Notes under the pieces: generated by a model | The model's database searches: none | Seen by the model: only the letters and a program-made list of their open reading frames with translations | What the model was told of the DNA's origin: nothing | Shown here: positions 3,841-37,942 of the stretch, piece by piece | Position numbering within the stretch: position 1 is the stretch's first letter | Layout of the letters: every line of letters begins with the position of its first letter | Position numbers and translations under genes: made by a program | Origin: a bacterium | Lineage (GTDB): Bacteria > Elusimicrobiota > Elusimicrobia > UBA1565 > UBA9628 | Length of the DNA stretch: 64,000 nucleotides | Assembly (NCBI GenBank): GCA_021810245.1 | Contig: JAJZJF010000001.1 | Location: 5,582 to 69,581 of the forward strand | Direction of reading: 5' to 3'

Positions 3841-3872
3841 AGTGTCTTCCATAAATCCATTTACAGTCCGTC

Positions 3873-3963: not shown

Positions 3964-4004
3964 GACGAGGGAGCCAAATGGAAAGAAGCGTTGGAGCGAC
4001 TAAA

Positions 4005-6792: not shown

Positions 6793-6841
6793 ATCAGCAA
6801 CTTAATTTTCCCTAGCACTCCCGCGCTTTCGGCGTCCAGCG

Positions 6842-7675
6842 CTACTCATCGCCGTCCTTCTTGCCTTCCCTCAACTTTGGCAAACGCCGATCGCCGCTGA
6901 GTATGCGCATTTGTTGGATGGCGATTTGGTTCAGGCGGCGAAGACGCTCGGATTGGACGTGGCCTTCAGCGATAAAGAGCGCATTGAGGTTTTCTAAGTT
7001 AGACAAGCAGACAAGCTGGGCGCTACCGGCCTGATCCCGGATATTTCCTTTTTTGCCTGGATTTTCCCCGCGCCATTGGGCTGCGGTCTTTCCGAACAGC
7101 GCCATGTTTAGCACGTCGGCTTCACTGGCATAGATCAGAGCAGTTTGCGCAGGACTTAACTCAGGCGGAATCAAGTGTTCGCGTACGGCATCGGTGTGAA
7201 TGTGGTAGTTGAGTTTGGCGAGGTTGCGCCGGATGTCCCAGCCGAGCGTCTTATGCTCTTCCTCCTTAAGTCGCTGGAATTCCTTGATGAGATAAAGTTT
7301 GAACTCGACCGAAATCCACGACGCGAATTCAAAGGCGATGTCCTTATGGGCATAGGTGCCGCCGTAGCGCCCGGCTTTGGAAATAACGCCGACGGCGGCG
7401 GTTCTCTGTATCCACTGCTTGGGGGTCAATGTAAAGCTATTGAGCCCGGCCAACTTTTTAATCCCGTCGAATTCGACGGGATTAAAAGCGGGGTTATTGA
7501 TCTGTTCCCAGACCCCTAAAAATTCGATGGTGTTGCGGTTCCGTAGCCAATTGCGGATAAGATCATCGGTGGCATCTTTGTTCTTATAGCGGGCGATGTC
7601 GGTGAGACAGATATAATCCTCTTCCGCGACCGTCAGCATTTGGATCTCACGGCTTAGCACATTGAGCTTGGCCAT
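6842..7675 (-). CDS. KilA-N domain protein embedded between hsdM and hsdS
   Basis: The N-terminus MAKLNVLSREIQMLTVAEEDYICLTDIARYKNKDATDDLIRNWLRNRNTIEFLGVWE matches the KilA-N pattern. The ATG lies 1 nt after the hsdM stop (TAGAATGGCC), and the ORF track start at 7747 is an upstream over-extension. Confidence 0.75.
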   Translation of the reverse strand: MAKLNVLSREIQMLTVAEEDYICLTDIARYKNKDATDDLIRNWLRNRNTIEFLGVWEQINNPAFNPVEFDGIKKLAGLNSFTLTPKQWIQRTAAVGVISKAGRYGGTYAHKDIAFEFASWISVEFKLYLIKEFQRLKEEEHKTLGWDIRRNLAKLNYHIHTDAVREHLIPPELSPAQTALIYASEADVLNMALFGKTAAQWRGENPGKKGNIRDQAGSAQLVCLSNLENLNALFIAEGHVQSERLRRLNQIAIQQMRILSGDRRLPKLREGKKDGDE

Positions 7676-7676
7676 T

Positions 7677-9137
7677 CTATTTTGGAAGCAACACTTTGAT
7701 ATCCCCCAGCGCCTTTGCGCTTTCGGCGTCCAGCGCGGCAATTTCATCCATGATTATTTTTGGGTCGCGGAGAACTGTTTCATCTTTCTTGTGCGGATTT
7801 TTTACTGAGAGGTCAAAAGTATTTGTATCAACATTGGCAATATTGATTGACCATGAATTTTCTGAATCGGCTTTGGTTTTTTGCAATTTCACGAATTCCG
7901 CCAAGTCATTTTCATTGAGCGGATTGGTCTTGCCGAGGTTTCGGTCTAAATTGAGTTGGTAAAACCAAATTTTGCGCGTGGACGCGCCCTTCTCAAAAAA
8001 CAGCACGACTGTTTTTACGCCTGCGCCTTGAAACGTGCCTCCGGGGCAGTCCAGAATTGTATGCAGATTGCAATTTTCTAGCAAAAGTTTTCGCAGACTG
8101 ACAGAGGCATTATCGGTGTTGGAAAGAAACGTGTTTTTGATCACGACACCCGCCTTGCCCCCCGCTTTCAGTATTTTGATGAAATGCTGGAGAAACAGAA
8201 AAGCGGTTTCGCCGGTCTTAATCGGAAAATTTTGCTGGACCTCGGCGCGTTCTTTGCCGCCAAACGGCGGATTGGCAAGAACGATGTCATAACGGTCTTT
8301 TTCCTGAATATCGGCTAAATTTTCCGCGAGGGTGTTCGTATGCACGATATTGGGGGCTTCGATGCCGTGCAAAATCATATTCATCGTGCCGATGATATAG
8401 GCGAGTGATTTTTTCTCTTTGCCGTAAAAGGTCTTTTTTTGAAGCGTTTCCGAGTCTTTGGTATTTAGGCTCTTGCTGGTTTTTAAGTATTCAAACGCTT
8501 CGCACAAAAAACCCGCCGATCCGACTGCGCCGTCATACACTTTATCGCCTATGCTGGGCGCTACCACCTTAACGATGGTTTTAATGAGTGGACGGGGCGT
8601 GTAGTATTCGCCACCGTTTCTGCCCGCGTTGCCCATATTCTTGATTTTGCCTTCATAGAGATGCGACATCTCGTGTTTTTCGGCGCTGGAGCGAAAGCGC
8701 AGTTCATTAACGCGGTTGATGACCTCGCGCAGGTTGTAGCCGCTTTGGATTTTATTTTTGATCTCGCTGAAAATTTCGCCGATCTTGTATTCGATGGTGT
8801 CAGCGCTTTCGGCCGAAGTATTAAATTTTTTGAGATAGGGAAACAGTTTTTGATCAACAAAATCTTTAAGGTCATCGCCCGTCAAGGCTTTGTGGTGGTC
8901 AATTTTTCCGTCTTTATCTTTGGGAAACGCCCAGACTTCCCATTGATATTGTTTGTCGATAATCCCGTCATAGGATTTGCCGGAAAGCTGGGCGGCAGTT
9001 TTTTTGTCTTTCTCAAAATCATCCAGATATTTTAAAAAGAGAATCCATGAGGTTTGCTCCACATAATCTAATTCGCTGCTGCATCCCGCATCTTTGTGAA
9101 GTATGTCGTCTATGTTTTTAAAGGTTTGTTCAAACAT
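7677..9137 (-). CDS. hsdM: Type I R-M N6-adenine DNA methyltransferase (HsdM)
   Basis: It carries the NPPFGG catalytic motif (LANPPFGGKERAE) and an N-terminal HsdM-type domain. It is followed by hsdS and hsdR on the same strand. Confidence 0.9.
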   Translation of the reverse strand: MFEQTFKNIDDILHKDAGCSSELDYVEQTSWILFLKYLDDFEKDKKTAAQLSGKSYDGIIDKQYQWEVWAFPKDKDGKIDHHKALTGDDLKDFVDQKLFPYLKKFNTSAESADTIEYKIGEIFSEIKNKIQSGYNLREVINRVNELRFRSSAEKHEMSHLYEGKIKNMGNAGRNGGEYYTPRPLIKTIVKVVAPSIGDKVYDGAVGSAGFLCEAFEYLKTSKSLNTKDSETLQKKTFYGKEKKSLAYIIGTMNMILHGIEAPNIVHTNTLAENLADIQEKDRYDIVLANPPFGGKERAEVQQNFPIKTGETAFLFLQHFIKILKAGGKAGVVIKNTFLSNTDNASVSLRKLLLENCNLHTILDCPGGTFQGAGVKTVVLFFEKGASTRKIWFYQLNLDRNLGKTNPLNENDLAEFVKLQKTKADSENSWSINIANVDTNTFDLSVKNPHKKDETVLRDPKIIMDEIAALDAESAKALGDIKVLLPK

Positions 9138-9759
9138 GGCGATTCCTCAATTGTTGATTCATTGGAAGCAAGAGCTTATTTATGGGAAGGCTCTTTTCCT
9201 TCTTAAAAAAATAATCGAGATTTTCTTTCCCTCCCGGCAGCAATTCCTTCGATTCGGAATCATAATGCATCCATTTAGGATATCCCCATTGTTCCTGAAG
9301 CCAAAAGATGTTCTCCCAATCCTCCGAATCGGCATAGTGCTCTTTCTGTATGGATGCCTTGGTAATATAAAAATAGGGAGCAAAAAAATCGAAGAGACTC
9401 TGGCGGACAGTGTCACGGTTCACTTTCTCATTTTTTATTAGGTAGCCTAGGTTTTCGAAGAAAATCATTATTGGAGCGTAAACTCTTTCTAAAGCATCTT
9501 TATCTGCGCTGGACCTTTTACAGGAATAATGAAGGGCGCAGAGCCCTCTATCTCCTCTAAGAGTGTATGCGAATTCATTCCACATCAAACGCCACAAATC
9601 GACTTGTGCCTGCTGAATTTGATGGTTTAACGTCTTATTGGCGGTCCTCGTAGTCCACAAAGCGGCAAAGGCGGCTCCGGCTGTTGCAATTGCCCCTACC
9701 GCCATCCAAAAGGTAGACGAGACAAGTAATTTTAAATATATCCAATGACTAGGGCACAT
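9130..9759 (-). CDS. Uncharacterised protein with an N-terminal transmembrane helix (209 aa); first gene of the hsd operon
   Basis: The ORF has a hydrophobic N-terminus (LKLLVSSTFWMAVGAIATAGAAFAALW) and its stop overlaps the hsdM start by 8 nt. I found no recognisable domain. Confidence 0.5.
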   Translation of the reverse strand: MCPSHWIYLKLLVSSTFWMAVGAIATAGAAFAALWTTRTANKTLNHQIQQAQVDLWRLMWNEFAYTLRGDRGLCALHYSCKRSSADKDALERVYAPIMIFFENLGYLIKNEKVNRDTVRQSLFDFFAPYFYITKASIQKEHYADSEDWENIFWLQEQWGYPKWMHYDSESKELLPGGKENLDYFFKKEKSLPINKLLLPMNQQLRNRHV

Positions 9760-10163
9760 CGGCTTAATTTTAGCATTCTAAAATACCGTGTAACTGCTCT
9801 TGCGTCTCTCCCCAGCAATTCCGCACATCGCAGCGGAAGCGTCGGAAAATGTGGCGAAATCCAAGCTGGCAGATTCGCGGATCATGATTTTGAGCCTAGG
9901 AGCGACGCGGAAGCGGCGTGACGGTCATAAAATCAAGACCGGCCCCAACACCGCCGCCCCAGCGGCTTGCCAGGGTGGTAGGATAATATTGCGCGGCAAG
10001 ATAATAGTCTAAGGAGGTTGCGCCCAAAAGGATTCCAGCTTCTGTAAAACCAAGTCATCCATGAATAGCCGTGATAGATGTAGCCTGGTGCGGCCTTGAC
10101 GCTGCGGCCGCTTGAGATTACGGTCAAAGAACACCGTCGTTAAAAAGAACGCTAAAAAAAGAA

Positions 10164-10989
10164 TCATAAAATTGGCCAGCATCGCTTGGTGAACCGCTTT
10201 AATAACCGCAGACCCGCCGAAGCCTCCGTATCCCCCGGCAAGAGCGGCTCTATATCCAGTTCAAGGACGGGCGTAACGCCAACCAACTGCAACACAACGT
10301 AGCGATGGTAATATTGGGTTTTTATTCCGCCCTCGACTTTAATGTCTCGCCTCATGCAGCCAGGACAGCGCCGCTTAAAGCTGCAGTAGGGTTCCTGCCC
10401 ATCTAATGCGCCGACCCAAGGATCCCAGCGGGCGGGGATTTTTAACTCCTGCCCTAGAGCGTTGTGGCTGCCCAGGCGCATGGCGTGCATCCCAAATTCG
10501 CTCAGCCACACCGCCCGAACGGGAATTTGAGGTTCTAAGCGCCCATCATGAACATGGGACAATAACTCCTCAAAATCCCATGTCCGCTCCAAATACTTCG
10601 CAAAGCGCGACAACACTTTCTTTTTAGGCTTTTCCCCTTCCGATTTCCTTCCAACGTTCATCCCCAACAATCGCAAGAAGCCTCCGCGCTTCTTGGTAGC
10701 TCTTGGCCCAGTCTCGAATCTCATCAAGCTGCTTGGGCGGGATGCTTTTCATTCTCATTTTCCCATGTTGGCTTTGGCTGGCATACCATGAGATATGCCA
10801 GTAGCGCTTCCCCTTAGCGCAGCGGCAGGTGGCCGTGCCGCAATACCGCTTCATGGGAACCAGGTTGGCTCTCAATATCCCTCTGCTGCCGTTCATTATT
10901 TGACGAAGGCGGGCGCGAGCCGTCCGTTCTTTAGCTGATTTTAACGCCATGACGACCTCCTTAAACATGATATTACTAATATATATCAT
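10164..10989 (-). pseudogene. Zinc-ribbon (CGTATCRCAKGKRYW...) protein split into two overlapping frames (121 aa and 187 aa); possibly a degraded mobile-element recombinase or transposase gene
   Basis: Two same-strand ORFs (10624..10989 and 10164..10727) overlap by 104 nt in different frames. Cys-rich motifs are present (CxxxCxC and CSFKRRCPGC). It sits 26 bp inside the right direct repeat. Confidence 0.4.
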
Positions 10990-11015
10990 GTTATAGCGAT
11001 AAAGTCAAGCAAAAT

Positions 11016-11097
11016 GCGAATGCGAATTTGCTCCTCAAGCCCGGATTAAACAACTATTGACGGCTGAAGACTAGAAAATTAGGGAAGGTGCGGAATT
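11016..11097. repeat. Right copy of the 82-bp perfect direct repeat
   Basis: Identical to 393..474. Confidence 0.9.
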
Positions 11098-11232
11098 ACA
11101 GACGACCCTCAAGATTCTGACTGATTTTATCCGACGATGTTGCTGGGGGAACGAACTCTTTTGGTTAAAAAGCGTATTAGGGTTGGGCGATTTAAAATGC
11201 CTAAAGAAACGATAAAAGGAAGGGATATTTGT

Positions 11233-12144
11233 ATGAAAAGCTCTATCAATGGCATGGCCGAGGAGTTCCGCTCCCAACTTAACAAACCAGGCGCCGTCGA
11301 ACTTCCCGGCTGCTACGACGTCTTAAGCGCGATGATTCTTGAGGAGGCCGGGTTTAATGCGGTTTTTCTCAGCGGCTACGGAGTCGCGGCGAGCATGCTG
11401 GGCAATCCGGACATCGGTCTTACTAGTTTAGCCGAAACGGCGGCAGCGGCAAAGAGCGTGGTCAATGCGTTAAAAATTCCGATAGTAGTTGACATCGACA
11501 ACGGCTACGGCAATGAAGACAATGTCCTCCGTGTAATTCACGAACTCGAATACTCCGGGGTCGCCGCAGTGATCATGGAAGACCAGATCATGCCCAAGCG
11601 CTGCGGCCATTCCGGAAACAAACAAGTTATTCCGATTGAGCAATACATGGCCAAATTAGAATGCGCTTTAAAAAGCAGGCAGACGCCCATGACGGTCATC
11701 GCCCGCACCGATTCCATGGATCTAAGCGAAGCGATTTCCCGCGCCAAGATGTTTCACTCCGCGGGAGCGGATGTGACGCTCATTGATGGATTGTCGTCGC
11801 GCGACGCAATCAAACGGGTCGCCGATGAAGTTCCTGGGCACAAACAAATTAATCTCATTTATGGAGGAAAGACGCCGCTTCTCTCTGTTAAGGAGCTCGC
11901 CGAACTTGGGTTTAAAGTCGTTTTATACTCCACGCCCGCGCTTTACGCGGCGGCTCAAACGCTTCTTGAGTCAATGCGCCGATTACGAGAGTCTCATGAT
12001 ATCAACTCAATCTCGAGCGAGAGTATTCCGTTTAAGAATTTTCAGGAATTTATCGAGAGGAAATACGCTGAAAGAAACGCTCGCAAATTAGAGCGATCTA
12101 ATCACAAATCCACGACTGCTCCATCATCGGCGGCGATAAGATAG
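11233..12144 (+). CDS. PEP mutase/isocitrate lyase superfamily enzyme (2-methylisocitrate lyase or carboxyvinyl-carboxyphosphonate phosphorylmutase-like)
   Basis: Characteristic sequences VFLSGYGVAAS, DIDNGYGNEDNV and GVAAVIMEDQ are present. The AGGAAGG RBS sits 8 nt before the ATG at 11233, so the 11137 ORF start is likely an over-extension. Confidence 0.75.
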   Translation: MKSSINGMAEEFRSQLNKPGAVELPGCYDVLSAMILEEAGFNAVFLSGYGVAASMLGNPDIGLTSLAETAAAAKSVVNALKIPIVVDIDNGYGNEDNVLRVIHELEYSGVAAVIMEDQIMPKRCGHSGNKQVIPIEQYMAKLECALKSRQTPMTVIARTDSMDLSEAISRAKMFHSAGADVTLIDGLSSRDAIKRVADEVPGHKQINLIYGGKTPLLSVKELAELGFKVVLYSTPALYAAAQTLLESMRRLRESHDINSISSESIPFKNFQEFIERKYAERNARKLERSNHKSTTAPSSAAIR

Positions 12145-12156
12145 CTCAGAGATTCT

Positions 12157-13974
12157 TTATTTTTTCTGGGGCAGAGGCGGCGCCCTATTAGCCAGACCGT
12201 TTCGCATCCCCATAATTGTTTTTAATCGCGCACGCAAAACCTCCTCTTTCTTTTGAAGGTCTCCTTGGGTTAGGGTTTTCCGACTCGCGATCGTTAAAGC
12301 AGCATTCTTTAAGGCAAATATGGAAGCTTCAAAAAAATCCTCGACTGTTTTTTGCGCTTCACCCGCCGTTGCCTCAAGCCTTATCTCATAATCATAACGC
12401 AATCTCCCGGCATTGACATCCATGGCCTCTTCCACCTTCCTCTTGAGGGCCTTTAAAAAAATAGATTTAAACATCCGCAGCGTCGGCATAGGCAAGAAAC
12501 TCCTCTCCCAAATCGGAACTTCCTCTAAAACAAACCAGACGGTGGGCGGAGAAACGATAAGCGTGGGTTTATGGACAACCTCGTGTTCGGTTTTGGCAAC
12601 CGCGCAAACTTCTTTAAGAGACTCGTTAAGCATATCCGTTGCATTTTCCAAATATCTATCCGTTATCTCTTGAAAAGTTTTGGCCCAATGAGGCTCTTCT
12701 TTTTCCAGATACCGAAGAAAAGACGTCTCGACGGAATTTAAAAAATACCTATTGAGCTGGGAACGAATTTTCGATGAGGACTGATGACAAATATTTTGGT
12801 AAAGCGCCGTTAATTGGGCCGTTATTTCCTTCAATTGAATTTGAACGTATTCATACAAGTCTTCCTGCATCGTCCGAATATGGTCTTTTAAATCGCAACG
12901 ATAGAGTTTTGAAAGTTCATATTGCCGTCGGCGAGTTGTTTCTAAAATTTGTTTAAATACCGCTTCTTGATTTTCAATATCTTGCGCGGCCTTGGTTAAT
13001 GACCCCAGCTCAAGTTCAATTTCAAGACAAAGATTTCCAAGAAGGCGTTCCGCTCTCTCTGATACCGATTGTCTCAAAAGATTTCTTTTTCCCTCGATCA
13101 TGAGATGGTTTAAAGAGTCCTCAAGACTCTGCATGCCGCTTTGCCGCCACAACTCGGCATCCGCGTTTTTCTTGGCCTCAAGACCTCGCTTGGCGGAAAT
13201 GGGAAAGAGGAGCGCATTCCCTTCGCCCAAGACCGATCGAAGCGCGCTTCTTATAAATCGGAGCGACTGTTCCAGTTCTTCGGTGGAAAAATAATCCACC
13301 TTGTTGACAATCACATAAAGCCTTTTCGTCCAGCGCCGAATGGAGTTGAGAAATTCCAATTCCAACTCGCTTATCGGCGGATCCACGCTTAAGACCAAGA
13401 TCATGGCATCGGCCTTGGGAAAATAGCGTTCGGCAACTTGCGTGTTGTGTCGGTAGATGGACCCCACTCCCGGCGTATCAACGAGGATGGTCCCTTCGCG
13501 CAGGAAGGGAGATGGGATATCGACGATGACCCTATCCACTTTCTTTTCATTCTTTGGGTTGCGGTCCTCGGCCACGAAATCGGGGATATGGTTGAAGGAT
13601 ATGTTCTCCCGGTGTCCGCCTAAAAACTCGACATTGGCCGCTTTCTCTTTGCCGCAGCGCACCAAGGTGACCACCGAAGTCAGCGGCACGACGGCCATCG
13701 GCAGAACTGGCTCGCCGACCAAAGCGTTAATCAGCGTGGATTTCCCACGCTTAAAAGACCCGACCACCACGATTTGAAGCTCATTTTCAGACAGTTTACG
13801 CTTGAGTTCCTGCAGCCGTGAATTCAAATCTTCCCGGCCGATTTCGGCCAAAAAATCAGAAATACGATCAAGATATCGCTTCGCTCCATCCAGGCTCATT
13901 TGGCCTGCGCCTAATGAACAAAGCGCGGCTTCATTTAACTCAATGAAATTGGATGATTCGTTTTTTAAGGCCAT
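12157..13974 (-). CDS. Bacterial dynamin-like GTPase (605 aa)
   Basis: G1 P-loop GSFKRGKSTLINAL, G3 DTPGVGS and G4 NKVD are present, followed by a long helical C-terminal region. Confidence 0.75.
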   Translation of the reverse strand: MALKNESSNFIELNEAALCSLGAGQMSLDGAKRYLDRISDFLAEIGREDLNSRLQELKRKLSENELQIVVVGSFKRGKSTLINALVGEPVLPMAVVPLTSVVTLVRCGKEKAANVEFLGGHRENISFNHIPDFVAEDRNPKNEKKVDRVIVDIPSPFLREGTILVDTPGVGSIYRHNTQVAERYFPKADAMILVLSVDPPISELELEFLNSIRRWTKRLYVIVNKVDYFSTEELEQSLRFIRSALRSVLGEGNALLFPISAKRGLEAKKNADAELWRQSGMQSLEDSLNHLMIEGKRNLLRQSVSERAERLLGNLCLEIELELGSLTKAAQDIENQEAVFKQILETTRRRQYELSKLYRCDLKDHIRTMQEDLYEYVQIQLKEITAQLTALYQNICHQSSSKIRSQLNRYFLNSVETSFLRYLEKEEPHWAKTFQEITDRYLENATDMLNESLKEVCAVAKTEHEVVHKPTLIVSPPTVWFVLEEVPIWERSFLPMPTLRMFKSIFLKALKRKVEEAMDVNAGRLRYDYEIRLEATAGEAQKTVEDFFEASIFALKNAALTIASRKTLTQGDLQKKEEVLRARLKTIMGMRNGLANRAPPLPQKK

Positions 13975-27942: not shown

Positions 27943-28006
27943 AATCTATAAACCGTCTTGAGAAGGGAAATAGATTTAGTAGAATGAAGTGTTCCCCTAT
28001 TCAACG

Positions 28007-30187
28007 ATGAATCTTGACCTTCTCAACCCCGAACAAGCGCGCGCGGTTCTTCATAAAGAAGGCCCGCTCTTGGTTTTGGCCGCGGCGGGAACCGGAAAAA
28101 CTCGGGTCATCACTTACCGAATCGCGCGGCTTATCGAAGAAGGCGTTTCCCCCGAAAGAATCCTAGCCGTTACCTTCACAAACAAAGCCGCCGAGGAAAT
28201 GCGGCAAAGAATCGAGTCCTTGTCTCCCGGAAAGGGCGGCGCGGTCTGGGTTTTTACCTTCCACGGCTTCTGCGCGAAACTCTTGCGCCAACACTATGAG
28301 TTAGCCAAACTCAGCCGCCATTTCACGATTTACGATCAATCCGATCAGAAAAGACTGATCACCGAAGCGATGAAGGAACTCGGCTTCGATAAAGAGACCG
28401 CAAAGGCCTCAATGTATGCCGGAATTATCTCGCGCGCCAAAGACGATCTTTTAGACGCCGAGTCTTACGCCATCTATGCCGAAACGACCGTTGACTCTTC
28501 CAGAAAAACCGCCGCGAAAATTTACAGCGTTTATCAAAAGAAGCTGGAAAACGCGGGCGGAGTCGATTTTGGGGATCTCTTGCTTAAAGTTTGCTCTCTT
28601 TTAAAGGAACACCCTTCCATCCGCGAATACTACCAAGATTATTTCCGGCACATTCTCGTAGATGAATACCAAGACACCAACCACGCCCAATACATCATCA
28701 CCAAAACCCTGGCCGCTAAGCATAAAAATCTGTGCGTGGTCGGAGACGACGATCAAAGCGTTTATTCTTGGCGCGGAGCCGATATCCGAAACATCCTGGA
28801 ATTTGAGCGCGATTTCAAAGACACCGGCGTCGTCACCTTGGAACAAAATTATCGTTCGACCAAGCCGATTCTCGACGCCGCAGGGCGGGTCATCCGCAAT
28901 AACGGCAAGCGCAAAGCCAAAACCTTGTGGACCCAAAAAGAAGGCGGCAACGCCATCCACGTCCAAGAGTTAATGGATGAAAGAGAAGAGGCTTCCTGGG
29001 TCGTGCGCAAAATCGAAGAGGAAAAAAGAGCCGGACGCTCTCTGTCTGATTTCGCGATTTTTTACCGAACCAACGCTCAAAGCCGCTCTTTTGAAGAGGC
29101 CTTGCGCCGCGCCGGAATCAATTATCGTTTGATTGGGGCGATGCGCTTTTATCAAAGGCAAGAAATCAAGGACGCCCTGGCCTACGCGCGCGTAATTTTA
29201 AATCCGCGAGATGAAATTAGCCTGATGAGAATCGTCAATACGCCCCCCAGAGGAATCGGGAAAACCAGCCTTGAAAGAATCAAGGCTTACGCGAATTCTA
29301 AAAATTTAAGCGCTTTGGACGCCTTTAAGGCCGCCTCAGAAATCGAGAATCTAACGCCTTCTTGCCGCAAATCCTTGGCGGATCTAACTTCCTTTCTTGA
29401 GAAAATTCAAGCCGATTTGCCGTCTTTGTCGGCCAGCGCCGCGATGGCGCGTATTTTAGAAGAATCCCGATATTTTTCTTGGCTAGAACAAGAAAGCGAA
29501 ACCGATCTCGATGCCGCCTCTCGTCTCGCCAACGTTCAAGAACTTCTAAACTCAGTCAAGGAATACGAAGAAAGAAGACAGACCTCCGGTTCTTCCTTAA
29601 GCCTTAGCCAATATCTGGAAGAAATCTCCCTTCAAACCGACAATTTCGATGCGCCGGGAGTTGATGATTCAATAACGCTGATGACCATTCATCTTGCCAA
29701 GGGCCTTGAGTTTCCCGTCGTTTTTCTGACCGGTCTTGAAGAGGGGCTATTTCCAATCGGCTCGAATAACTCCTCTCAAGAGGAATTAGAAGAAGAAAGG
29801 CGGCTTTGCTATGTTGGGATGACGCGCGCAAAGGAAATGTTGTATTTGACCCATGCCTCGACTCGGCGCGTTTTCGGGCAAACCTATTCCAATATCCCTT
29901 CTCGCTTTATCATGGAAGCCCGGCTTGAAAGCGAATATTTACCGTCTTCCAAAAGACCGCCCGCGACGTCCGCGGCGACGGGCTCTTCTCTTGAGCCTCC
30001 AAACTCCTACGCGCAAAGAATGGGAGCGGCGCTGAAAGTGGGCTCTCGGGTTCGACACCCCCTTTTCGGCGCCGGAGAAGTCCTTGAAAAATCCGGCAGC
30101 GGAGAAGGCGCAAAAGCTCTCATTCGCTTTCAAAATGGGAGAATCGCCAAGCTCGTTTTGCGCTACGCCCCCTTGGAGGTTATTTGA
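28007..30187 (+). CDS. pcrA: ATP-dependent DNA helicase PcrA/UvrD
   Basis: Walker A AAAGTGKT, the UvrD motifs VDEYQDTN and TIHLAKGLEF, and a C-terminal domain are present. An alternative GTG start lies at 27989. Confidence 0.9.
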   Translation: MNLDLLNPEQARAVLHKEGPLLVLAAAGTGKTRVITYRIARLIEEGVSPERILAVTFTNKAAEEMRQRIESLSPGKGGAVWVFTFHGFCAKLLRQHYELAKLSRHFTIYDQSDQKRLITEAMKELGFDKETAKASMYAGIISRAKDDLLDAESYAIYAETTVDSSRKTAAKIYSVYQKKLENAGGVDFGDLLLKVCSLLKEHPSIREYYQDYFRHILVDEYQDTNHAQYIITKTLAAKHKNLCVVGDDDQSVYSWRGADIRNILEFERDFKDTGVVTLEQNYRSTKPILDAAGRVIRNNGKRKAKTLWTQKEGGNAIHVQELMDEREEASWVVRKIEEEKRAGRSLSDFAIFYRTNAQSRSFEEALRRAGINYRLIGAMRFYQRQEIKDALAYARVILNPRDEISLMRIVNTPPRGIGKTSLERIKAYANSKNLSALDAFKAASEIENLTPSCRKSLADLTSFLEKIQADLPSLSASAAMARILEESRYFSWLEQESETDLDAASRLANVQELLNSVKEYEERRQTSGSSLSLSQYLEEISLQTDNFDAPGVDDSITLMTIHLAKGLEFPVVFLTGLEEGLFPIGSNNSSQEELEEERRLCYVGMTRAKEMLYLTHASTRRVFGQTYSNIPSRFIMEARLESEYLPSSKRPPATSAATGSSLEPPNSYAQRMGAALKVGSRVRHPLFGAGEVLEKSGSGEGAKALIRFQNGRIAKLVLRYAPLEVI

Positions 30188-30486
30188 TGGAAAAATCTTC
30201 TCTGATTACGAAAGAAGACGTGCTTAAAATCGCTGCCTTGGCTAAATTGTCCTTGTCCGCCGATGAAGTTTCCCGCTACCAATCGCAATTCACAAAGATA
30301 TTGGACTCGATCGCGGAATTATCCCGTTTAAATGTGGAAAACGTCCCCCCAACATCTTCAGTCCTGGGTCTCAAAAATGCCTTGCGCGAGGATGAAATAG
30401 CGTCTTTTGAAAACATGGAAGCGCTGATCGATAACGCCCCGGAAAAAGACGGCCCTTATTTCAAAGTTCCTAAAATAATCGAATGA
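30187..30486 (+). CDS. gatC: Glu/Asp-tRNA amidotransferase subunit C
   Basis: MEKSSLITKEDVLKIAALAKLSLSADEV is GatC-like. The ATG overlaps the pcrA stop (TGATG). Confidence 0.85.
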   Translation: MEKSSLITKEDVLKIAALAKLSLSADEVSRYQSQFTKILDSIAELSRLNVENVPPTSSVLGLKNALREDEIASFENMEALIDNAPEKDGPYFKVPKIIE

Positions 30487-31946
30487 AACATTTAACTTCG
30501 CTCTCTGCCGCTCAAATCGCAAAAAACGTATCGGATGGAAGCCTGAAGGCCGAAGAAGTCGCCGCCGCTCACTTAAGCCGCATTACATCCGAAGATCCCA
30601 AGGTCAAGGCCTTTATAGCCGTCTTGGAAGAAGACGCGCTTGAAGCCGCCCGTCAAATTGATTCAAAAAGGGCTCAGGGAAAAAAACTCGGCAAATTAGC
30701 CGGAGTTCCCATCGCCATCAAAGACAATATTTTAGTTAAAGGCGTTGAGACCACCTGCGCCTCTAAAATTCTCAAGGGCTTTAAAGCCCCTTACGACGCG
30801 ACCATTATTGAAAAACTCAAACAAGAAGACGCCATCGTTATCGGAAAAACCAATCTCGATGAGTTTGCCATGGGCTCATCCAACGAGAATTCCGCTTTTT
30901 TTAAAACTAGAAATCCCTGGAATTTAGACGCCGTTCCCGGAGGTTCCTCGGGAGGATCAGCCGCGGCGGTCGCAGCCAAAATGGCGCCTTTATCCTTAGG
31001 ATCGGACACCGGAGGATCTATCAGGCAACCCGCCGCATTCTGCGGCTTAGTGGGACTTAAGCCCACCTACGGCCTTGTCTCCAGATACGGCCTTATCGCC
31101 TTTGCCTCGTCTCTTGACCAAATCGGCCCCATGGCCCGAAGCGTCGAAGACGCCGCTCTTTTATTATCCTCTATCGCGGGACACGATTTAAAGGATTCGA
31201 CCTCTTCTCCTCAAGCCCCTACCCATTTTTCGGGAAAGCCGCTTGAAAGCGCCCGCGGGCTTAGAATCGGAATGCCAAGGGAATATTTCGCCGAGGGTCT
31301 TGATCCTGAAATCCGAAAATCCGTTTGGAACGCCGTCAATTTCCTAAAAACCATCGGCGCTGAAGTCAAAGACGTCTCTCTGCCGCATACCGCTTATGCC
31401 GTCGCAACCTATTATATCATCGCGCCATCCGAAGCCGCCTCAAATCTCGCCCGATTTGATGGAGTCCGCTATGGGCGCCGCGCGCAAGACGCTAGAAGCC
31501 TGTCAGAGCTCTACGAAAAAACCCGCGGGGAAGGTTTTGGCCCTGAGGTTAAAAGGCGCATCATGCTGGGAACCTACGCCTTAAGTTCTGGTTATTATGA
31601 CGCCTATTATAACCGCGCGCAAAAAGCGCGAACCTTGATCGCCCAAGACTTTGAAAACGTTTTTAAGGAAGTCGATTTTCTTGCCACCCCCACCACTCCC
31701 ACGGCCGCCTTTAAATTCGGCGAAAAATCTTCCGACCCAGTGGCGATGTATTTATCGGATATCTTTACGATACCTTCTAATCTCGCCGGAAACGCCAGCC
31801 TCTCTATTCCCTGCGGGTTGACCAAAGAGCATTTGCCCATCGGGCTTCAGCTGATCGCGCCGGCCTTTCAAGATGAAAAATTATTGGCGCTCGCGGCCAC
31901 CGTAGAAAAGGCCGTTTGTTTCCCGCAACTCACTGGACACGGATGA
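30483..31946 (+). CDS. gatA: Glu/Asp-tRNA amidotransferase subunit A
   Basis: Amidase signature GVPIAIKDNI and GGSSGGSAAAVA. It overlaps gatC (ATGA). Confidence 0.93.
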   Translation: MKHLTSLSAAQIAKNVSDGSLKAEEVAAAHLSRITSEDPKVKAFIAVLEEDALEAARQIDSKRAQGKKLGKLAGVPIAIKDNILVKGVETTCASKILKGFKAPYDATIIEKLKQEDAIVIGKTNLDEFAMGSSNENSAFFKTRNPWNLDAVPGGSSGGSAAAVAAKMAPLSLGSDTGGSIRQPAAFCGLVGLKPTYGLVSRYGLIAFASSLDQIGPMARSVEDAALLLSSIAGHDLKDSTSSPQAPTHFSGKPLESARGLRIGMPREYFAEGLDPEIRKSVWNAVNFLKTIGAEVKDVSLPHTAYAVATYYIIAPSEAASNLARFDGVRYGRRAQDARSLSELYEKTRGEGFGPEVKRRIMLGTYALSSGYYDAYYNRAQKARTLIAQDFENVFKEVDFLATPTTPTAAFKFGEKSSDPVAMYLSDIFTIPSNLAGNASLSIPCGLTKEHLPIGLQLIAPAFQDEKLLALAATVEKAVCFPQLTGHG

Positions 31947-31956
31947 AAACGGACTG

Positions 31957-33120
31957 ATGGAAGCGCCAAAGCAATCAGAATGGAAGCAGCCAATAGAACC
32001 TCCATCAAGAGAGGCGCCAACAAGTACACCGCTAGTGCACAGGGCCTCTCCCACGGCACAGGGCTACTTGTTTGAGGATAATTCGCCTCCTCATATGCCG
32101 TCAGTGCAGTTTCTTGGCAATAAGGAAAAATTATTGCCTTGGATTTTTAGTTTCGTGCCAACTTCAACTTTACAGAAACCCTTGCGTTTCCTTGATGGTT
32201 TTTCCGGTTCAGCCGTAGTATCATATGAAGCCAAGCGCAGAGGATTTCAGGTCACTAGTAATGATCTATTGCAATCGTGTTGGCAATCGGCGGCAGGCCT
32301 AATAGAAAACGGGACAAATACGCTCTCATTGGCGAAAGCAGAGCGTTTATTCGAGCGCCCCACTGGGGCAAGCGAAATGATGAGACGCCTATTCGCCGGA
32401 CGATTTTTTACGGAATCCGAAGCTGGGTTGCTGGATTCCTTCCGATCCAACGTAGAAATATTGCCGGCGGCTACACAAGCGCTCGCGATGGCGGTGATGA
32501 ATCGCGCTTTAACGCGAAAAATTTTGATGGGGCATTTTGCCCATTGCCAAGCGTTAAGATATGCCGCCGATCCCACGCGAATTCGGCGTAATCCTAGTAT
32601 TGCTAAACCTATTCAGCAATTGTTCTTTGATCTCCTGCCAGAGTTTAATCAAGCGGTATTTGATAATGGTTTAGCGCATCGCGCGCATAACATGGATTTG
32701 CTGGAGTTATTGCATGATGAAGCAGATTTTGATGTGGCATATTTTGATCCGCCATACTGCATGAGTCATAGCGATTACCAATCGTTCTACCACCTATTAG
32801 AGACCTTTTCGCGCCGATGGACGAACAAAGAATTTGTTGGGGGCACTAATCGATACTGGCCTCCTCTAGGCACCGACTTTGACAAAAAAGCGACAGTAAT
32901 TGATGCCTTCGGTAGACTGTTCAAATTAGCGGCTCCCATTCCATTATGGCTGATCTCATACAACGACAGAAGCTATCCCAATGTGGAAATGTTTCATAAC
33001 CTATTATTGGCGACCGGACGAACGATAGAAGTTCATCGTTATCAATACCAAAATAGCCGCGGCGGAAAAGGTTCGGTTAAGGGCTCTCACGAAATTTTGT
33101 TTGTGGCGCGCAATGAATAA
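31957..33120 (+). CDS. Dam-like (D12 class) N6-adenine DNA methyltransferase
   Basis: Motif I is FLDGFSGSAVV, motif IV is DPPY (AYFDPPYC), and the N-terminus FLGNKEKLLPWI is Dam-like. GC is low. An alternative ATG start at 32095 removes a low-complexity leader of about 46 aa. Confidence 0.75.
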   Translation: MEAPKQSEWKQPIEPPSREAPTSTPLVHRASPTAQGYLFEDNSPPHMPSVQFLGNKEKLLPWIFSFVPTSTLQKPLRFLDGFSGSAVVSYEAKRRGFQVTSNDLLQSCWQSAAGLIENGTNTLSLAKAERLFERPTGASEMMRRLFAGRFFTESEAGLLDSFRSNVEILPAATQALAMAVMNRALTRKILMGHFAHCQALRYAADPTRIRRNPSIAKPIQQLFFDLLPEFNQAVFDNGLAHRAHNMDLLELLHDEADFDVAYFDPPYCMSHSDYQSFYHLLETFSRRWTNKEFVGGTNRYWPPLGTDFDKKATVIDAFGRLFKLAAPIPLWLISYNDRSYPNVEMFHNLLLATGRTIEVHRYQYQNSRGGKGSVKGSHEILFVARNE

Positions 33121-34198
33121 ATTTGAACATTGGTTGAAATGTTACGAAACGGATGATTTATTGCCGTTTACAGAGAACGCCGACGCTTTGCTTTGGTTAA
33201 AACTCAAATCCATTGCGCGAAGAGAATACCTGAATGGGTTTTTGCATTACAGTGGGGTAAAATTAAAACAGGGCACGTTAAGAGAGCAATGGCGAGAGCT
33301 GTTTATTGCATTACATCAGCGACATGATGCGCATTCATTGCTGGACGCTTTTATTCGCGAGCAAGATCGCCGCATAGCGTTAGCTTTACCTGTTCAGCAA
33401 CTAGTTTCCGAACTTTATAAAATGCGTTCCTTTGACTGGGGCGGAAACTATCAGAATAATTTAGACCGTTTCTTGGTGGATCGCTATATCAAGAATATTC
33501 CGTCGTTTGATATTCTTTCGTCCAAGATGCAAACAGAAATTGCGGCGAGCGTTTCCGGCTATGTGTTGTGCTCATGGTATAACCACTGGTCATCCATTTT
33601 AATCGAGCATTTATTCAAGCAATCCCCAAAAGTCCTGCCGACAATCGGCATGATAAAAAAAGTTGATTTTTTTGTTGATCAAGTGCCGTTCGATCTAAAG
33701 GTAACTTATCTGCCACAGGGTTACATCTCAGAGCAACGCAAGGCGATGGGACTAAAGCCTGAACTAACGGAGCTAAAAGAATATGCGCGCGCTGAAAAGA
33801 TATCTTTCGATAAAACCGTCGACGGCCCAACGCAAACATATGAGATTACACAAAAATTACTTGATGTGGGAAGTTCTAATGCAGGACAGATTCAGCGCAT
33901 CAGGACTCTCATTCTAAAGCAGGCAATGAAATCGCCAAAACTCTTGGCACGTTGGTTATATGAAAATCAAGGCGAACGCCGATTTGACGCTTCAAATCGC
34001 ATTTTTCTAGTTATGGTGGATACCACAGATTGGGATGCAAGTTGGAAACTAAAACGAAATTTAGGCGCGCTTAAGCCATCAATTGATGGCTGGATTAATT
34101 CGTTTGACCGCAAGAAGTTAGAACGTTTGAAGATGGAATTTAGTTTCGCAGGAAAACCATATGGGTGTTTTTCTGACGTTATCTTTATTGTGCGATAA
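33113..34198 (+). CDS. Hypothetical protein, candidate cognate Type II restriction endonuclease
   Basis: It overlaps the MTase stop (ATGAATAA) and shares the same AT-rich composition. VDFFVDQVPFDLKV is a possible PD-(D/E)xK element. No other domain was recognised. Confidence 0.4.
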   Translation: MNKFEHWLKCYETDDLLPFTENADALLWLKLKSIARREYLNGFLHYSGVKLKQGTLREQWRELFIALHQRHDAHSLLDAFIREQDRRIALALPVQQLVSELYKMRSFDWGGNYQNNLDRFLVDRYIKNIPSFDILSSKMQTEIAASVSGYVLCSWYNHWSSILIEHLFKQSPKVLPTIGMIKKVDFFVDQVPFDLKVTYLPQGYISEQRKAMGLKPELTELKEYARAEKISFDKTVDGPTQTYEITQKLLDVGSSNAGQIQRIRTLILKQAMKSPKLLARWLYENQGERRFDASNRIFLVMVDTTDWDASWKLKRNLGALKPSIDGWINSFDRKKLERLKMEFSFAGKPYGCFSDVIFIVR

Positions 34199-34204
34199 TT
34201 CTAA

Positions 34205-34612
34205 ATGGATAAAGAACAATCGGCGGGTGGAGTTCTCAGTAAAAATGGCAAGCTCATGCTAGTCCGCGTCAAGAATCTCATGGGAGAAAAAGTTTGGACT
34301 TTTCCGAAAGGGCATATCGAAAAAAACGAGACCCCTCGGAAAGCCGCTCTCAGAGAGGTTTGGGAAGAGACTGGCTGGGAATGCAAAATTATCCGCCCCC
34401 TTTTTCTCGCCCGCTATAGTTTTGAGAGAAACGGCAAGCCGGTCTCTAAAACCGTCCGCTGGTATCTCATGGAACCGCTTTTAAAATCAGGACGCCCGAT
34501 GGCGGGCGAAATTTTTTCGGCCCAATGGCTGAGTCCTAAACTCGCCGAAAAAAGGCTTAAATACAAATCGGACCTCAAACTTTTAAGCCTCTGGAAAAAA
34601 CTAGCTCAATGA
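34205..34612 (+). CDS. NUDIX hydrolase
   Basis: Nudix box GHIEKNETPRKAALREVWEETG. Confidence 0.85.
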   Translation: MDKEQSAGGVLSKNGKLMLVRVKNLMGEKVWTFPKGHIEKNETPRKAALREVWEETGWECKIIRPLFLARYSFERNGKPVSKTVRWYLMEPLLKSGRPMAGEIFSAQWLSPKLAEKRLKYKSDLKLLSLWKKLAQ

Positions 34613-34629
34613 TAGAACGGAAGGAAACC

Positions 34630-36054
34630 ATGACAGAATCTTTTGATATGGTCGTCGGACTCGAAGTCCATGTGCAACTCGCAACAAAAACAAAACTTTT
34701 TTGCGCCTGTTCCAATGACGGTTTTGGCGCTCCCCCCAATAGCCGGGTTTGTCCGGTCTGCACCGGCCAGCCCGGGGCCTTGCCGGTTCTTAACAAAAAA
34801 GCCGTGGAATTGGCTTTCAAGGCGGCTTTGGCTTTAAATGGGAAGCTCGCGCACAAATCCATTTTCGCGCGCAAAAATTATTTCTATCCCGATCTGCCAA
34901 AGGCCTATCAAATCTCCCAATATGACGAACCTTTTTGTTTGGGCGGAGAAGTCCCCTTGCGCCTCAAAGGCGGAAAAATGAAAATCGTCGAATTGGCACG
35001 CATCCATATGGAAGAAGACGCGGGAAAGCTTCTCCATGCCATCGGGTCCCAAGCCTTGAATTATTCCTTGGTTGATTTCAACCGCGGCGGGGTTCCCCTC
35101 ATTGAAATCGTCTCAAAGCCCGAAATTTTTTCAAGCGATGAGGCCTACGCTTATCTGACCGGCCTCAAAGAAATTCTTCAATATGCCCGCGTTTCCAACT
35201 GCGACATGGAGAAAGGCGAGATGAGATGCGACGCCAACATTTCTTTAAGACCAAAAGGTTCTACCAAACTTGGCACGCGAGCCGAAATCAAAAATCTCAA
35301 TTCATTTAAAAACGTCAAAGACGCCTTGGAATATGAACTTCTGCGCCAAGCCGATGTTCTTTCCTCAGGCGGTAAAATTATCCAGGAAACGCGGCTTTGG
35401 AACGGGAAAGAAACCGTCTCAATGCGCTCAAAAGAAGAAGCCCACGATTATCGCTATTTCCCCGATCCGGATCTGGTCCCCATAGACCTTTCTCCTGAAT
35501 GGATCGAAAAACTTAAGTCCGAGATTCCAGAACTTCCGCAATCCCGCCGCGCGCGCTTTGTTTCGGATTACCATTTATCCCCATATGAAGCCGAGGTCTT
35601 GGTCTCAGATCAAAGAACATCGGATTATTTTATCGAGGTTTTGAAGTTTCCTGAAGCTCAAAATGACGCGGGAGTGTTAGCCAAACTCATCATGAATATC
35701 CCTGATTTTGATCCCATTTTGCCGGAACAGATGGCCTCTCTCGTTGGCCTTTGCCATCAAAAAACCATCACCCTCAATCAGGCCAAAGAAATTTATCCCG
35801 AAATTCTCAAATCAAAAAAAGACCCGAAGATTCTAGTGGAAGAGAAAGGCTTAGCCCAGGTTTTAGACGAAAAAATTTTACGGGATTGGGTGCGAGAGGC
35901 TCTGGCCGCAAACCCAAAGGCGATATCGGATATCAAGGGCGGCAAAAAACAAGCCGCAGGGGCCTTGGTCGGGGCGGTGATGAAATTATCCAAGGGCAAA
36001 GCCAATCCCGCCTTGGTCAACAAACTCATATTCGAGGGGATTGACAAAGCGTAA
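34630..36054 (+). CDS. gatB: Glu/Asp-tRNA amidotransferase subunit B
   Basis: MTESFDMVVGLEVHVQL is the GatB N-terminus, with a GGAAGGA RBS 5 nt upstream. An alternative start at 34609 overlaps the Nudix stop (ATGA). Confidence 0.92.
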   Translation: MTESFDMVVGLEVHVQLATKTKLFCACSNDGFGAPPNSRVCPVCTGQPGALPVLNKKAVELAFKAALALNGKLAHKSIFARKNYFYPDLPKAYQISQYDEPFCLGGEVPLRLKGGKMKIVELARIHMEEDAGKLLHAIGSQALNYSLVDFNRGGVPLIEIVSKPEIFSSDEAYAYLTGLKEILQYARVSNCDMEKGEMRCDANISLRPKGSTKLGTRAEIKNLNSFKNVKDALEYELLRQADVLSSGGKIIQETRLWNGKETVSMRSKEEAHDYRYFPDPDLVPIDLSPEWIEKLKSEIPELPQSRRARFVSDYHLSPYEAEVLVSDQRTSDYFIEVLKFPEAQNDAGVLAKLIMNIPDFDPILPEQMASLVGLCHQKTITLNQAKEIYPEILKSKKDPKILVEEKGLAQVLDEKILRDWVREALAANPKAISDIKGGKKQAAGALVGAVMKLSKGKANPALVNKLIFEGIDKA

Positions 36055-36158
36055 TTTTAGGGATATACTCTTTGACAAGCAGGTCATGGGTGACAGAATT
36101 CGCCGATACGGCTATTTTTCCCCGTGATTCATTATAACGGCGAAAAGGGGGTCATACC

Positions 36159-36623
36159 ATGAAGGAAACAAAAGCAGTGAAAGGAGCGCGGGCTTCGGGA
36201 TTCACGCTCATTGAACTAATGATCGTGGTCGCTATTATCGGTATTTTGGCGGCTATCGCCATACCGAAGTTCGCGAATCTTATCAGGCAGTCTCAAGAAG
36301 GAGCGACGAAAGGAAACCTGTCAGGGATCCGCTCGGCGTTGAGCATCTATTACGGAGATAACACCGGAGTTTATCCGACGGATCTCCCAGGGCTCACCGT
36401 CAACGGAAAGTATCTGTCGGTCATCCCGAACGCGACCATTCCTCCGTATCACACGGCCACTTCCCTTGATGTCAACGAGGCGACATCTGGCGGCGGCCCT
36501 GGAGCGGCAACTGATAATGGAGAATGGCTCTACGACAGCCTTTCAACCGATGGCAATTACGGTGGAGTATGGGTGAGTTGCACACACACCGATACCCATG
36601 GGACAACCTGGACGACCTATTAA
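36159..36623 (+). CDS. Type IV pilin / pseudopilin (prepilin-type N-terminal methylation domain)
   Basis: GFTLIELMIVVAIIGILAAIAIP matches the class III signal peptide and N-methylation motif. Confidence 0.85.
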   Translation: MKETKAVKGARASGFTLIELMIVVAIIGILAAIAIPKFANLIRQSQEGATKGNLSGIRSALSIYYGDNTGVYPTDLPGLTVNGKYLSVIPNATIPPYHTATSLDVNEATSGGGPGAATDNGEWLYDSLSTDGNYGGVWVSCTHTDTHGTTWTTY

Positions 36624-36683: not shown

Positions 36684-37493
36684 ATGATTAAATCTCTGAT
36701 CACTCAACAAAGCCGTCTTCATATCTCTCATTGGGGCGGAACGGGAAGGCCCATCCTCTTGGTTCATGGACTTGCCGGAAGCGTGTCTTGGTGGGACCAG
36801 GTATGTCCATTACTCAAAGACGATTTTGAAGTCGCGGCCCTAGACCTCTCGGGACACGGAGACAGCGCTTGGTCTAAAGACGGACAATACGCGATGGATT
36901 TATTTCTATCGAATATCGACGAAGCCAAAGAATTTCTCAACTGGGAAAAATTTATTCTCGTGGGCCACTCCTTGGGAGCCCGAATCAGCGTCGAATACGC
37001 CTCCCGCGCGAGCCCTTCTTTAGAAGGCCTCATCGCCATTGATTTCATGCCTCGCGTAAAAGAGTCTAGTCCAAGATTCTCAAAACTCGCTGGATTGCGC
37101 CAACCCGTTTTTTCAAGTCAAGAAGCGATGATCAGCCGCTTTCATCTGCAACCACGAGGAACAAATCTTTCCGAACCAGAAATGAAAGAATTGGCTAAAA
37201 AGTTAATCATGCCTTGGAAAAACGGCTTTAGCTGGAAATGCGATTGGAGAGCTTTTTTAACCCGTTACGATTCTGTCTGGCCGCTTTTACCCCGGATTCA
37301 AACGCCCAGCTTAATCATCCGTGGAGAGTTCAGCCCCATCATGGACCGGGAAGACATTGAAAAAGTCTGCCAGCAAATAGCCAGAAGCGAATCGCTAGAA
37401 ATTCCGGGCGCTTACCATCACGTGCCTCTCGACGCGCCAGAAAAGACAGCGGAAGCAATTTTTCATTTCACACAGAAACTGGTTTCTCTATGA
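36684..37493 (+). CDS. Alpha/beta hydrolase
   Basis: It has HGLAGS and the nucleophile elbow VGHSLGA, in an alpha/beta hydrolase fold. Confidence 0.7.
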   Translation: MIKSLITQQSRLHISHWGGTGRPILLVHGLAGSVSWWDQVCPLLKDDFEVAALDLSGHGDSAWSKDGQYAMDLFLSNIDEAKEFLNWEKFILVGHSLGARISVEYASRASPSLEGLIAIDFMPRVKESSPRFSKLAGLRQPVFSSQEAMISRFHLQPRGTNLSEPEMKELAKKLIMPWKNGFSWKCDWRAFLTRYDSVWPLLPRIQTPSLIIRGEFSPIMDREDIEKVCQQIARSESLEIPGAYHHVPLDAPEKTAEAIFHFTQKLVSL

Positions 37494-37942
37494 TGGAGTC
37501 TCACTTTGTCGCCACAGGATATGTCGTTAAAAATGGGAAAACCCTTCTTTTGCTCCATAAGAAATTAGGATTTTGGCTCCCGCCCGGAGGGCACATTGAA
37601 GAAAATGAAAATCCGATTAAAGCTCTCCTGCGGGAAGTGCGGGAAGAAACCGGACTTAAAGTTAAAATTCTATCGCCCTTGATTTCCCCTCCTCCCAAGG
37701 AAAAAGACGTCAAGTTTCTTAACGTTCCCAATCACTTTCAGATGGAAACATTGCCCGGGCACGGAATTCATTTTGATCTCGTCTATTTTTGCAAACCCAT
37801 CGGAGGCCGGGAAAAGTTTTCCATCCAAGAAAGCCGCGACATGAAATGGTTCTCTCCCAAAGATCTGGCTTTGCCTCAAATACGCGATGAAGTCAGGCGC
37901 GTGGCCCTTCAAGCCATTAATTACGTCAAAAAAGCCCGATAA
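37490..37942 (+). CDS. NUDIX hydrolase
   Basis: Nudix box GGHIEENENPIKALLREVREETGL. Confidence 0.85.
   Translation: MMESHFVATGYVVKNGKTLLLLHKKLGFWLPPGGHIEENENPIKALLREVREETGLKVKILSPLISPPPKEKDVKFLNVPNHFQMETLPGHGIHFDLVYFCKPIGGREKFSIQESRDMKWFSPKDLALPQIRDEVRRVALQAINYVKKAR

Follow-up and report, generated by a model that had tools for sequence, protein, structure and literature searches.

We analysed a 64,000-nt stretch of DNA from a bacterium of the Elusimicrobia (contig JAJZJF010000001.1 of GenBank assembly GCA_021810245.1; hereafter, the window), in which two overlapping genes on the forward strand lie inside the gatCAB operon. The first (31957-33120, +; 387 aa) encodes a DNA methyltransferase (MTase) of the Pfam family PF02086 MethyltransfD12. 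The second, which we refer to as ORF2 (33113-34198, +), is an open reading frame (ORF) of 361 aa counted from the ATG at 33113; the longest ORF has 365 aa and starts with a TTG at 33101. We consider it likely that the pair is a two-gene Type II restriction-modification (R-M) cassette, horizontally acquired and old, in which the partner of the MTase is a putative PD-(D/E)xK nuclease. For this cassette we infer nuclease activity of ORF2, a specificity shared by both enzymes, and a role in defence or addiction.

The decisive evidence on the identity of ORF2 is its linkage to MTases elsewhere. We looked at 80 metagenome loci with an ORF2 homologue, 75 of which have at least 300 nt of upstream sequence and are thus informative. 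In all 75, a DNA MTase gene is found directly upstream of the ORF2 homologue and on the same strand, usually overlapping it. The linkage is obligatory, yet the MTase is interchangeable: 56 of the upstream MTases are of the D12 type, and the other 19 (all in the L097-L170 subset) are of the unrelated beta class (PF01555) with about 500 aa. A beta-class MTase is also paired with ORF2, with the same 8-nt overlap as in the window, in two complete Treponema pedis genomes (L006 and L007, 4527-6008). The swapping of non-homologous MTases beside one partner is a hallmark of restriction endonucleases (REases). Homologues of ORF2 are numerous and patchily distributed. There are 3,066 of them at E<=1e-3 in a collection clustered at 90% identity, and an exhaustive hidden Markov model search (also E<=1e-3) finds 694 clusters at 50% identity; homologues at about 50% identity occur across Fibrobacteres, Planctomycetes, Bacteroidota, spirochaetes and others, all of them annotated as “hypothetical”. 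Because its MTase is obligatory yet interchangeable, its distribution across phyla is patchy, and its composition is AT-rich (see below), we take ORF2 to be a probable Type II REase. The two domains also occur in one protein. P0241, the representative of a 50% identity cluster, is an M-R fusion of 729 aa with a D12 domain at residues 18-270 and an ORF2 domain at residues 365-729. The Type II arrangement is apparent in the separate and adjacent genes for MTase and partner, whose linkage is conserved across genomes, and in the lack of any ATPase, translocase or specificity subunit among the two conserved genes.

We add two observations on these loci. A motif search covering 17 loci gave DPPH as the catalytic motif of the beta-class partner in every one, in place of the customary DPPY/F. 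A single stop-free frame runs through MTase and ORF2 in L102 (332-2563), L126 (2888-5098) and L162 (2670-4952); these are either fusions or frameshift errors.

The AlphaFold2 model of ORF2, obtained with an alignment of 30 sequences, has a pLDDT of 90.5 and a pTM of 0.88. It includes an all-helical N-terminal domain (approximately residues 1-140) followed by a C-terminal PD-(D/E)xK-like domain, in which the elements occur in the order helix 145-169, strands 174-181, 184-188 and 191-199, helix 202-211, a helical insertion, and strand 296-302. From the conserved residues and the modelled secondary structure, we place a putative active site at 33605-33700 (+), consisting of E165 at the end of helix 145-169 (33605-33607, +), D185 at the start of strand 184-188 (33665-33667, +), and D194-L-K196 within strand 191-199 (33692-33700, +). 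All these residues are invariant in the 30 ORF2 homologues. A 16-sequence alignment reaching down to 22% identity has 12 invariant columns, amongst them D185, D194 and L195, and at that same depth conservation is 90% or more for E165 and K196. One member of the family has a Q in place of K196; BglII likewise has a Q instead of the K. In the model, compared by the order of its secondary-structure elements and not by the 3D geometry of the residues, the conserved residues form the signature of PD-(D/E)xK nucleases, and the core beneath them has the expected alpha-beta-beta-beta-alpha-beta order. The possible PD-(D/E)xK element reported in an earlier annotation of the window, made from the letters and their translations (the sequence-only reading), is indeed present, and it is the most conserved part of the family, on a predicted nuclease-like core.

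Several results weigh against ORF2 being the REase of an R-M system. No REase model in Pfam, NCBIfam or PADLOC has a sequence link to ORF2. In a Foldseek search of the PDB, the best match to the full ORF2 model has E=0.36, which is not significant. The top match to the C-terminal domain is a REase, ThaI (3NDH), with a 46-column core, E=1.5, probability 0.20 and TM 0.15; it is also not significant, and we take it as a hint only. A literature search that included the R-M systems of Treponema pedis found no member of the ORF2 family that is characterised, either biochemically or by methylome studies. Finally, the avoidance of palindromes, studied in the window, the sister genomes, the pooled host loci and controls, yielded no recognition site. 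The lack of a recognisable family, already stated in the sequence-only reading, extends to all the collections that we searched: ORF2 has no match in Pfam (using the single sequence and all 30 family members), NCBIfam, PADLOC (using the single sequence and 16 divergent members) or PHROGs, no meaningful match to PDB sequences (using the single sequence and a profile), and no tblastn match in plasmid and phage collections. P-loop and helicase domains, also looked for with Pfam in the single sequence and in family members, have no matches either.

An orphan or regulatory adenine MTase with a non-nuclease partner, such as a DNA-binding protein, a specificity factor or a methylation-sensing effector, would fit the lack of nuclease-family homology and of a significant fold match, as well as the fact that the nuclease assignment rests on a short motif and on the order of secondary-structure elements. 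The sequence-only reading had kept this option of an orphan MTase with a novel partner or effector next to that of an R-M system. We find it quite unlikely. The adjacency, always M and then the partner, is strict in 75/75 loci and includes two unrelated MTase classes, M-R fusions exist, and the best-conserved acidic and Lys residues of ORF2 are arranged as PD...DxK on a beta-hairpin that comes after a Glu-bearing helix. The family, at about 50% identity, is scattered patchily over phyla, and some homologues have defence-island or integrase neighbourhoods. The linkage, the fusion and the conserved motif on the predicted core, together with the purifying selection described below, support the R-M reading.

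Concerning the recognition site, three candidates stand out by their depletion. GTAC occurs 21 times in the 64 kb of the window, with an observed/expected ratio (O/E, zero-order) of 0.08. We reject it as the site of the cassette because it is equally depleted (O/E 0.05-0.12) in the sister genomes L011, L012 and L013 that do not have the insert. The GTAC depletion suggests that a GTAC-specific system located elsewhere in the genome has long exerted pressure across the lineage. As for the longer palindromes around GTAC, AGTACT is absent from the window, and there is one copy each of CGTACG, GGTACC and TGTACA. Among 6-mers, TTCGAA shows the strongest depletion both in the window (3 observed versus 16.2 expected) and in the pooled host loci, and it is also low in cassette-free relatives and in controls. 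GATC has a median O/E of 0.37 in the hosts of D12-type cassettes versus 0.99 in beta-class hosts, a depletion that probably reflects host taxonomy. A GATC specificity is not supported for the window's own cassette, where GATC is not avoided (10 observed versus 11.4 expected) and where the MTase stays below the cutoff of the Dam model TIGR00571.

The MTase scores 60.3 bits with PF02086 (gathering cutoff 22) over residues 52-283, and the PADLOC MTase_II model (PDLC03385) matches it in full length with E=1.7e-49. Motif IV is an exact DPPY (residues 264-267, nt 32746-32757). Motif I reads DGFSGSA (residues 80-86, nt 32194-32214) and is N-terminal to DPPY, which is the order of the alpha group. The whole of DPPY and, within motif I, the residues D80, F82, G84 and S85 do not vary among 16 MTase homologues. 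By homology, this gene is assigned to the D12-class (alpha-group) N6-adenine DNA methyltransferases, and from the class and the DPPY motif we infer N6-methyladenine (m6A) as its product. The sequence-only reading had described a D12-class enzyme with FxGxG and DPPY motifs; the class and the DPPY hold, but motif I is FxGxA, a near match to a strict FxGxG. It had also called the enzyme Dam-like, a label that is too specific and valid at the class level only, as TIGR00571 gives 26.1 bits, far under its cutoff of 114.85, and only residues 47-99 align.

The likely start of the MTase is 31957, with 32095 as an alternative. The ATG at 32095 results in a protein of 341 aa (from Met47), and it is the one used in the NCBI annotation of relatives. 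The first 46 codons are an open frame in the close relatives L002-L005, yet they are under weak constraint, with a ratio of non-synonymous to synonymous divergence (dN/dS) of 0.48. The N-terminal motifs M-x-A-P-x-Q and QxxLF recur in homologues from unrelated contexts. We reject 32095 as the sole start because the long frame is open in relatives and the N-terminal motifs are shared. At the other end of the gene, 8 nt (ATGAATAA, 33113-33120, +) are shared between the MTase stop and the ORF2 start, so that the sequence across the overlap reads ...gcaATGAATAAatt.... The same overlap is found in L001-L007, and in the metagenome loci, too, the two genes commonly overlap. The overlap suggests that translation of the two genes is coupled, M first and R second.

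That the cassette is an insertion follows from empty sites, which we searched for by scanning for GatA relatives, one genome per species. Two sister metagenome-assembled genomes (MAGs), L011 and L012, have GatA proteins 88% and 86% identical to that of the window, and an Elusimicrobia MAG, L013, has one that is 69% identical. In all three, gatA is directly followed by NUDIX-gatB, with no cassette. In BLASTN comparisons with L011 and L012, the window is colinear up to 31932 and homology resumes at 34211, and these break points delimit 2,278 bp of inserted DNA (31933-34210, +). The insert consists of the two cassette genes, a left junction of about 24 nt and a right junction of about 12 nt, and nothing more. 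By these alignments, the cassette entered exactly at the junction between the gatA stop and the NUDIX start. The insertion altered the C-terminus of gatA (...FPQLTGHG* here versus ...FPQLN* in the relatives with the empty site), and left the NUDIX start intact. A repeat search found no direct or inverted repeats at the borders of the insert, whose 2,278 bp encode neither an integrase nor a transposase. Traces of a target duplication or of repeats could have eroded, given an insertion age corresponding to a synonymous divergence (dS) of about 0.4. The comparison with uninterrupted relatives, which the sequence-only reading had proposed, thus confirms an insertion into the operon. That reading would have been undermined by relatives that all carry the two genes with native composition; in fact, the closest relatives carry the pair, the next sisters are without it, and the composition is non-native.

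The native genes around the insert, all on the forward strand, are gatC (30184-30486, Pfam GatC) and gatA (30483-31946, Pfam Amidase, E=2.5e-167) on the left, and a NUDIX hydrolase gene (34205-34612, PF00293, E=4e-18) and gatB (34609-36054, Pfam GatB_N/GatB_Yqey) on the right. The 3' end of the NUDIX gene overlaps the start of gatB (34609-34612), and there are only 6 nt between ORF2 and the NUDIX gene. Since the sister genomes show gatA-NUDIX-gatB, the NUDIX gene is native and outside the insert, and the operon before the insertion was therefore gatC-gatA-NUDIX-gatB, with gatB now shifted 2.3 kb away from gatA. The ORFs and Pfam matches agree with the coordinates and the description in the sequence-only reading of a gatCAB operon interrupted after gatA by a D12-class MTase and an overlapping 361-aa ORF. 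Its placement of the cassette between gatA and gatB is right in that the cassette is 3' of gatA, but it overlooked the NUDIX gene between ORF2 and gatB. Further out, the ORF list includes a UvrD/PcrA-type helicase (27989-30187, +) and a type IV pilin-like gene (36159-36623, +). A second NUDIX gene is found at 37490-37942, after an alpha/beta-hydrolase gene, which makes two NUDIX genes within 3.5 kb; both of them are kept in relatives.

The insertion is not recent, because it is shared with relatives that are about 11% diverged and because the synonymous divergence of its genes equals that of the flanks. Four close-relative assemblies (L002-L005, about 89% nucleotide identity over 8.5 kb) have the identical insertion with the same junction sequence. 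Comparing the genes of the window with those of L002 and L003, we obtain a dS of 0.46 and a dN/dS of 0.10 for the MTase core (341 aa), and 0.38 and 0.125, respectively, for ORF2. For the flanking genes uvrD, gatA and gatB, dS is 0.44, 0.41 and 0.41 with L002, and 0.35, 0.40 and 0.41 with L003, with dN/dS values of 0.06-0.09. These values indicate that the cassette entered before the lineages of the window and of L002-L005 split and was then inherited vertically, and that both genes are under purifying selection, being neither a recent arrival nor a decaying remnant.

Such an age raises the possibility of a domesticated R-M system, in which an epigenetic or regulatory role preserves the MTase while ORF2, attenuated or inactive, is retained within an essential transcript. 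An old insertion, whose dS equals that of the flanking genes and which relatives about 11% diverged in nucleotides also have, is what one would see in that case, and so is a location within an essential operon, in which selection may disfavour deletions. Also, no site avoidance specific to the carriers is detectable in the lineage. However, ORF2 is full length and has all the residues invariant in the family, and its dN/dS of 0.125 is near that of the housekeeping neighbours (0.06-0.15), whereas an inactive gene would drift toward 1. We regard domestication as very unlikely, and an R-M cassette with both of its enzymes functional remains our preferred explanation.

The foreign origin of the cassette is visible in its composition. 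The insert has a GC content of 44.3%, with 46.7% for the MTase and 41.5% for ORF2, versus 48.5% for the whole window. The GC content at third codon positions (GC3) is 0.45 for the MTase and 0.42 for ORF2, lower than the 0.50-0.59 of the neighbouring genes. The insert is the 2,278-bp stretch with the lowest GC of the 64-kb window, about 2.3 standard deviations under the mean of windows of the same size (mean 48.6%, standard deviation 1.8%). The AT-richness that the sequence-only reading had noticed, and for which it proposed a GC comparison, is then real but modest. The cassette is AT-richer than its surroundings in five out of six host loci checked, with cassette and host GC contents, outside the window, of 43.1 and 48.4% in L001, 45.9 and 62.1% in L091, 27.9 and 34.3% in Treponema pedis, and 33.0 and 40.0% in L009. 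The exception is L008, with 33.8% for the cassette and 32.7% for the host. Because the cassette has the lowest GC in the window, appears elsewhere in unrelated contexts, and is AT-richer than the host in five of six cases, we conclude that it was horizontally acquired, as the sequence-only reading had also proposed.

The other contexts are diverse. The same cassette, at 78-83% amino acid identity, is found in L001, where yebC and ruvC flank it within a ruvCAB-ybgC-tol region of proteobacterial type, and in L091 directly upstream of ruvC, with an upstream flank of only 295 nt. It seems that the cassettes land repeatedly at the junctions of housekeeping operons. L009 has an integrase beside the cassette, and L008 has genes for a Shedu-like SduA_C protein and an AAA_13 ATPase. 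A fragment of a larger multi-gene defence system, of the BREX, DISARM or MADS kind, could be imagined from these neighbouring defence genes in some homologues and from a weak match of the MTase to the PADLOC mad2 model (E=1.6e-5). The mad2 match, however, covers 46 residues around DPPY, which is the universal catalytic motif only, and from one context to another nothing but the two cassette genes is conserved, while the flanks (gatA/NUDIX, yebC/ruvC, an integrase, Treponema pedis genes) are wholly different and unrelated. We find membership in a larger system extremely unlikely, and continue to describe the pair as a self-contained R-M cassette.

Two other loci deserve mention. In L001, a 3.14-Mb genome, the region 6878-13407 includes, besides the cassette, a second unit between ruvA and ruvB, made up of a toxin-antitoxin pair (Xre/RES), a BsoBI-like endonuclease and a C5 methyltransferase that is predicted as two ORFs. 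The window itself has a Type I R-M locus with extra embedded genes on the reverse strand (456-9137, -). It is composed of hsdR (456-2774, -), a gene for a Bro-N protein (2771-3607, -), a reverse transcriptase (RVT_1; 4005-5654, -), hsdS (5641-6792, -), a gene for a KilA-N protein (6842-7747, -) and hsdM (7677-9137, -). The remaining low-GC stretches of the window (about 44.5%) coincide with these genes. The locus has the look of a defence island, and its reverse transcriptase is possibly defence-associated.

Promoter-like and terminator-like sites in 29800-36300 are not above the shuffled expectation; for terminator-like sites, we find 13 versus 10.0 +/- 3.2 after shuffling. Since no promoter or terminator of its own is detected and the gap between ORF2 and the NUDIX gene is 6 nt, the cassette is probably transcribed with the operon, from the gatCAB promoter. 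It was inserted in an ancestor of the host and its closest relatives, an uncultured lineage related to the Elusimicrobia, and transcription of NUDIX-gatB would have to read through it. In the mechanism that we propose, the MTase would methylate adenine (N6) at a specific sequence on the host chromosome. ORF2, translationally coupled to it by the 8-nt overlap, would be a Mg2+-dependent endonuclease of the PD-(D/E)xK type, probably a homodimer, with E165, D185, D194 and K196 as its catalytic residues, and it would cut the same sequence when unmethylated, for instance in incoming phage or plasmid DNA. The M-then-R order and the overlap would favour the MTase being made first.

As for its significance, we offer a proposal in two parts and hold it only tentatively, as something rather less than an even bet. 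The ORF2 family may be a structural family of Type II REases, biochemically uncharacterised, with alpha- or beta-class m6A MTases as partners and maybe with new specificity. In addition, such cassettes may persist by embedding seamlessly in essential operons, without a promoter or terminator of their own. If this is true, the embedding (gatCA-NUDIX-gatB here and yebC-ruvC in L001) makes precise loss rare and expression guaranteed. A probable function, that of a REase, is given to a large and widespread family annotated only as “hypothetical”, with candidate catalytic residues named, and a member of the family is a potentially useful enzyme if its specificity turns out to be new. The window also provides a clean natural case of an R-M cassette that sits at a gene junction in the operon of an essential aminoacyl-tRNA amidotransferase and that purifying selection has kept through speciation, and it is relevant to the question of how defence or selfish modules reach fixation.

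Amongst known systems, the comparison class is that of the Type IIP R-M systems with alpha-group m6A MTases and PD-(D/E)xK endonucleases, such as EcoRV, or PvuII and BglII for the spacing of the active site. Like them, the cassette has two adjacent, co-oriented genes, an MTase with motif I N-terminal to DPPY, and no ATPase or specificity subunit. The putative active site of ORF2 also resembles that of the Type IIP PD-(D/E)xK REases, with a helix-borne Glu, an Asp at the start of a strand, and the (D/E)xK in the next strand, and its short 9-residue spacing is comparable to that of PvuII (D58...E68-x-K70) and BglII. The differences are that no solved REase resembles ORF2 detectably in sequence or significantly in fold, that the N-terminal domain of ORF2 is large and all-helical, and that the cassette has no controller (C) protein. 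With the GATC MTases of the E. coli Dam, T4 Dam and DpnII type, the cassette MTase shares membership in PF02086 and an N-terminal S-adenosylmethionine-binding region that aligns (residues 47-99), but it differs in being far below the cutoff of the Dam family. As for the location, insertions of Type II R-M units into operon-like clusters, with no mobility genes present, have a precedent (Furuta, Abe and Kobayashi 2010, PMC2853133). The insertion at 31933-34210 differs from those in having no detectable long target duplication or flanking repeats. It is like them in being a Type II unit at a gene boundary that spans a stop and a start, leaves the target genes intact, and comes with no integrase or transposase. 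What we describe is an ordinary bacterial defence module in a slightly unusual place, and not a new kind of system.

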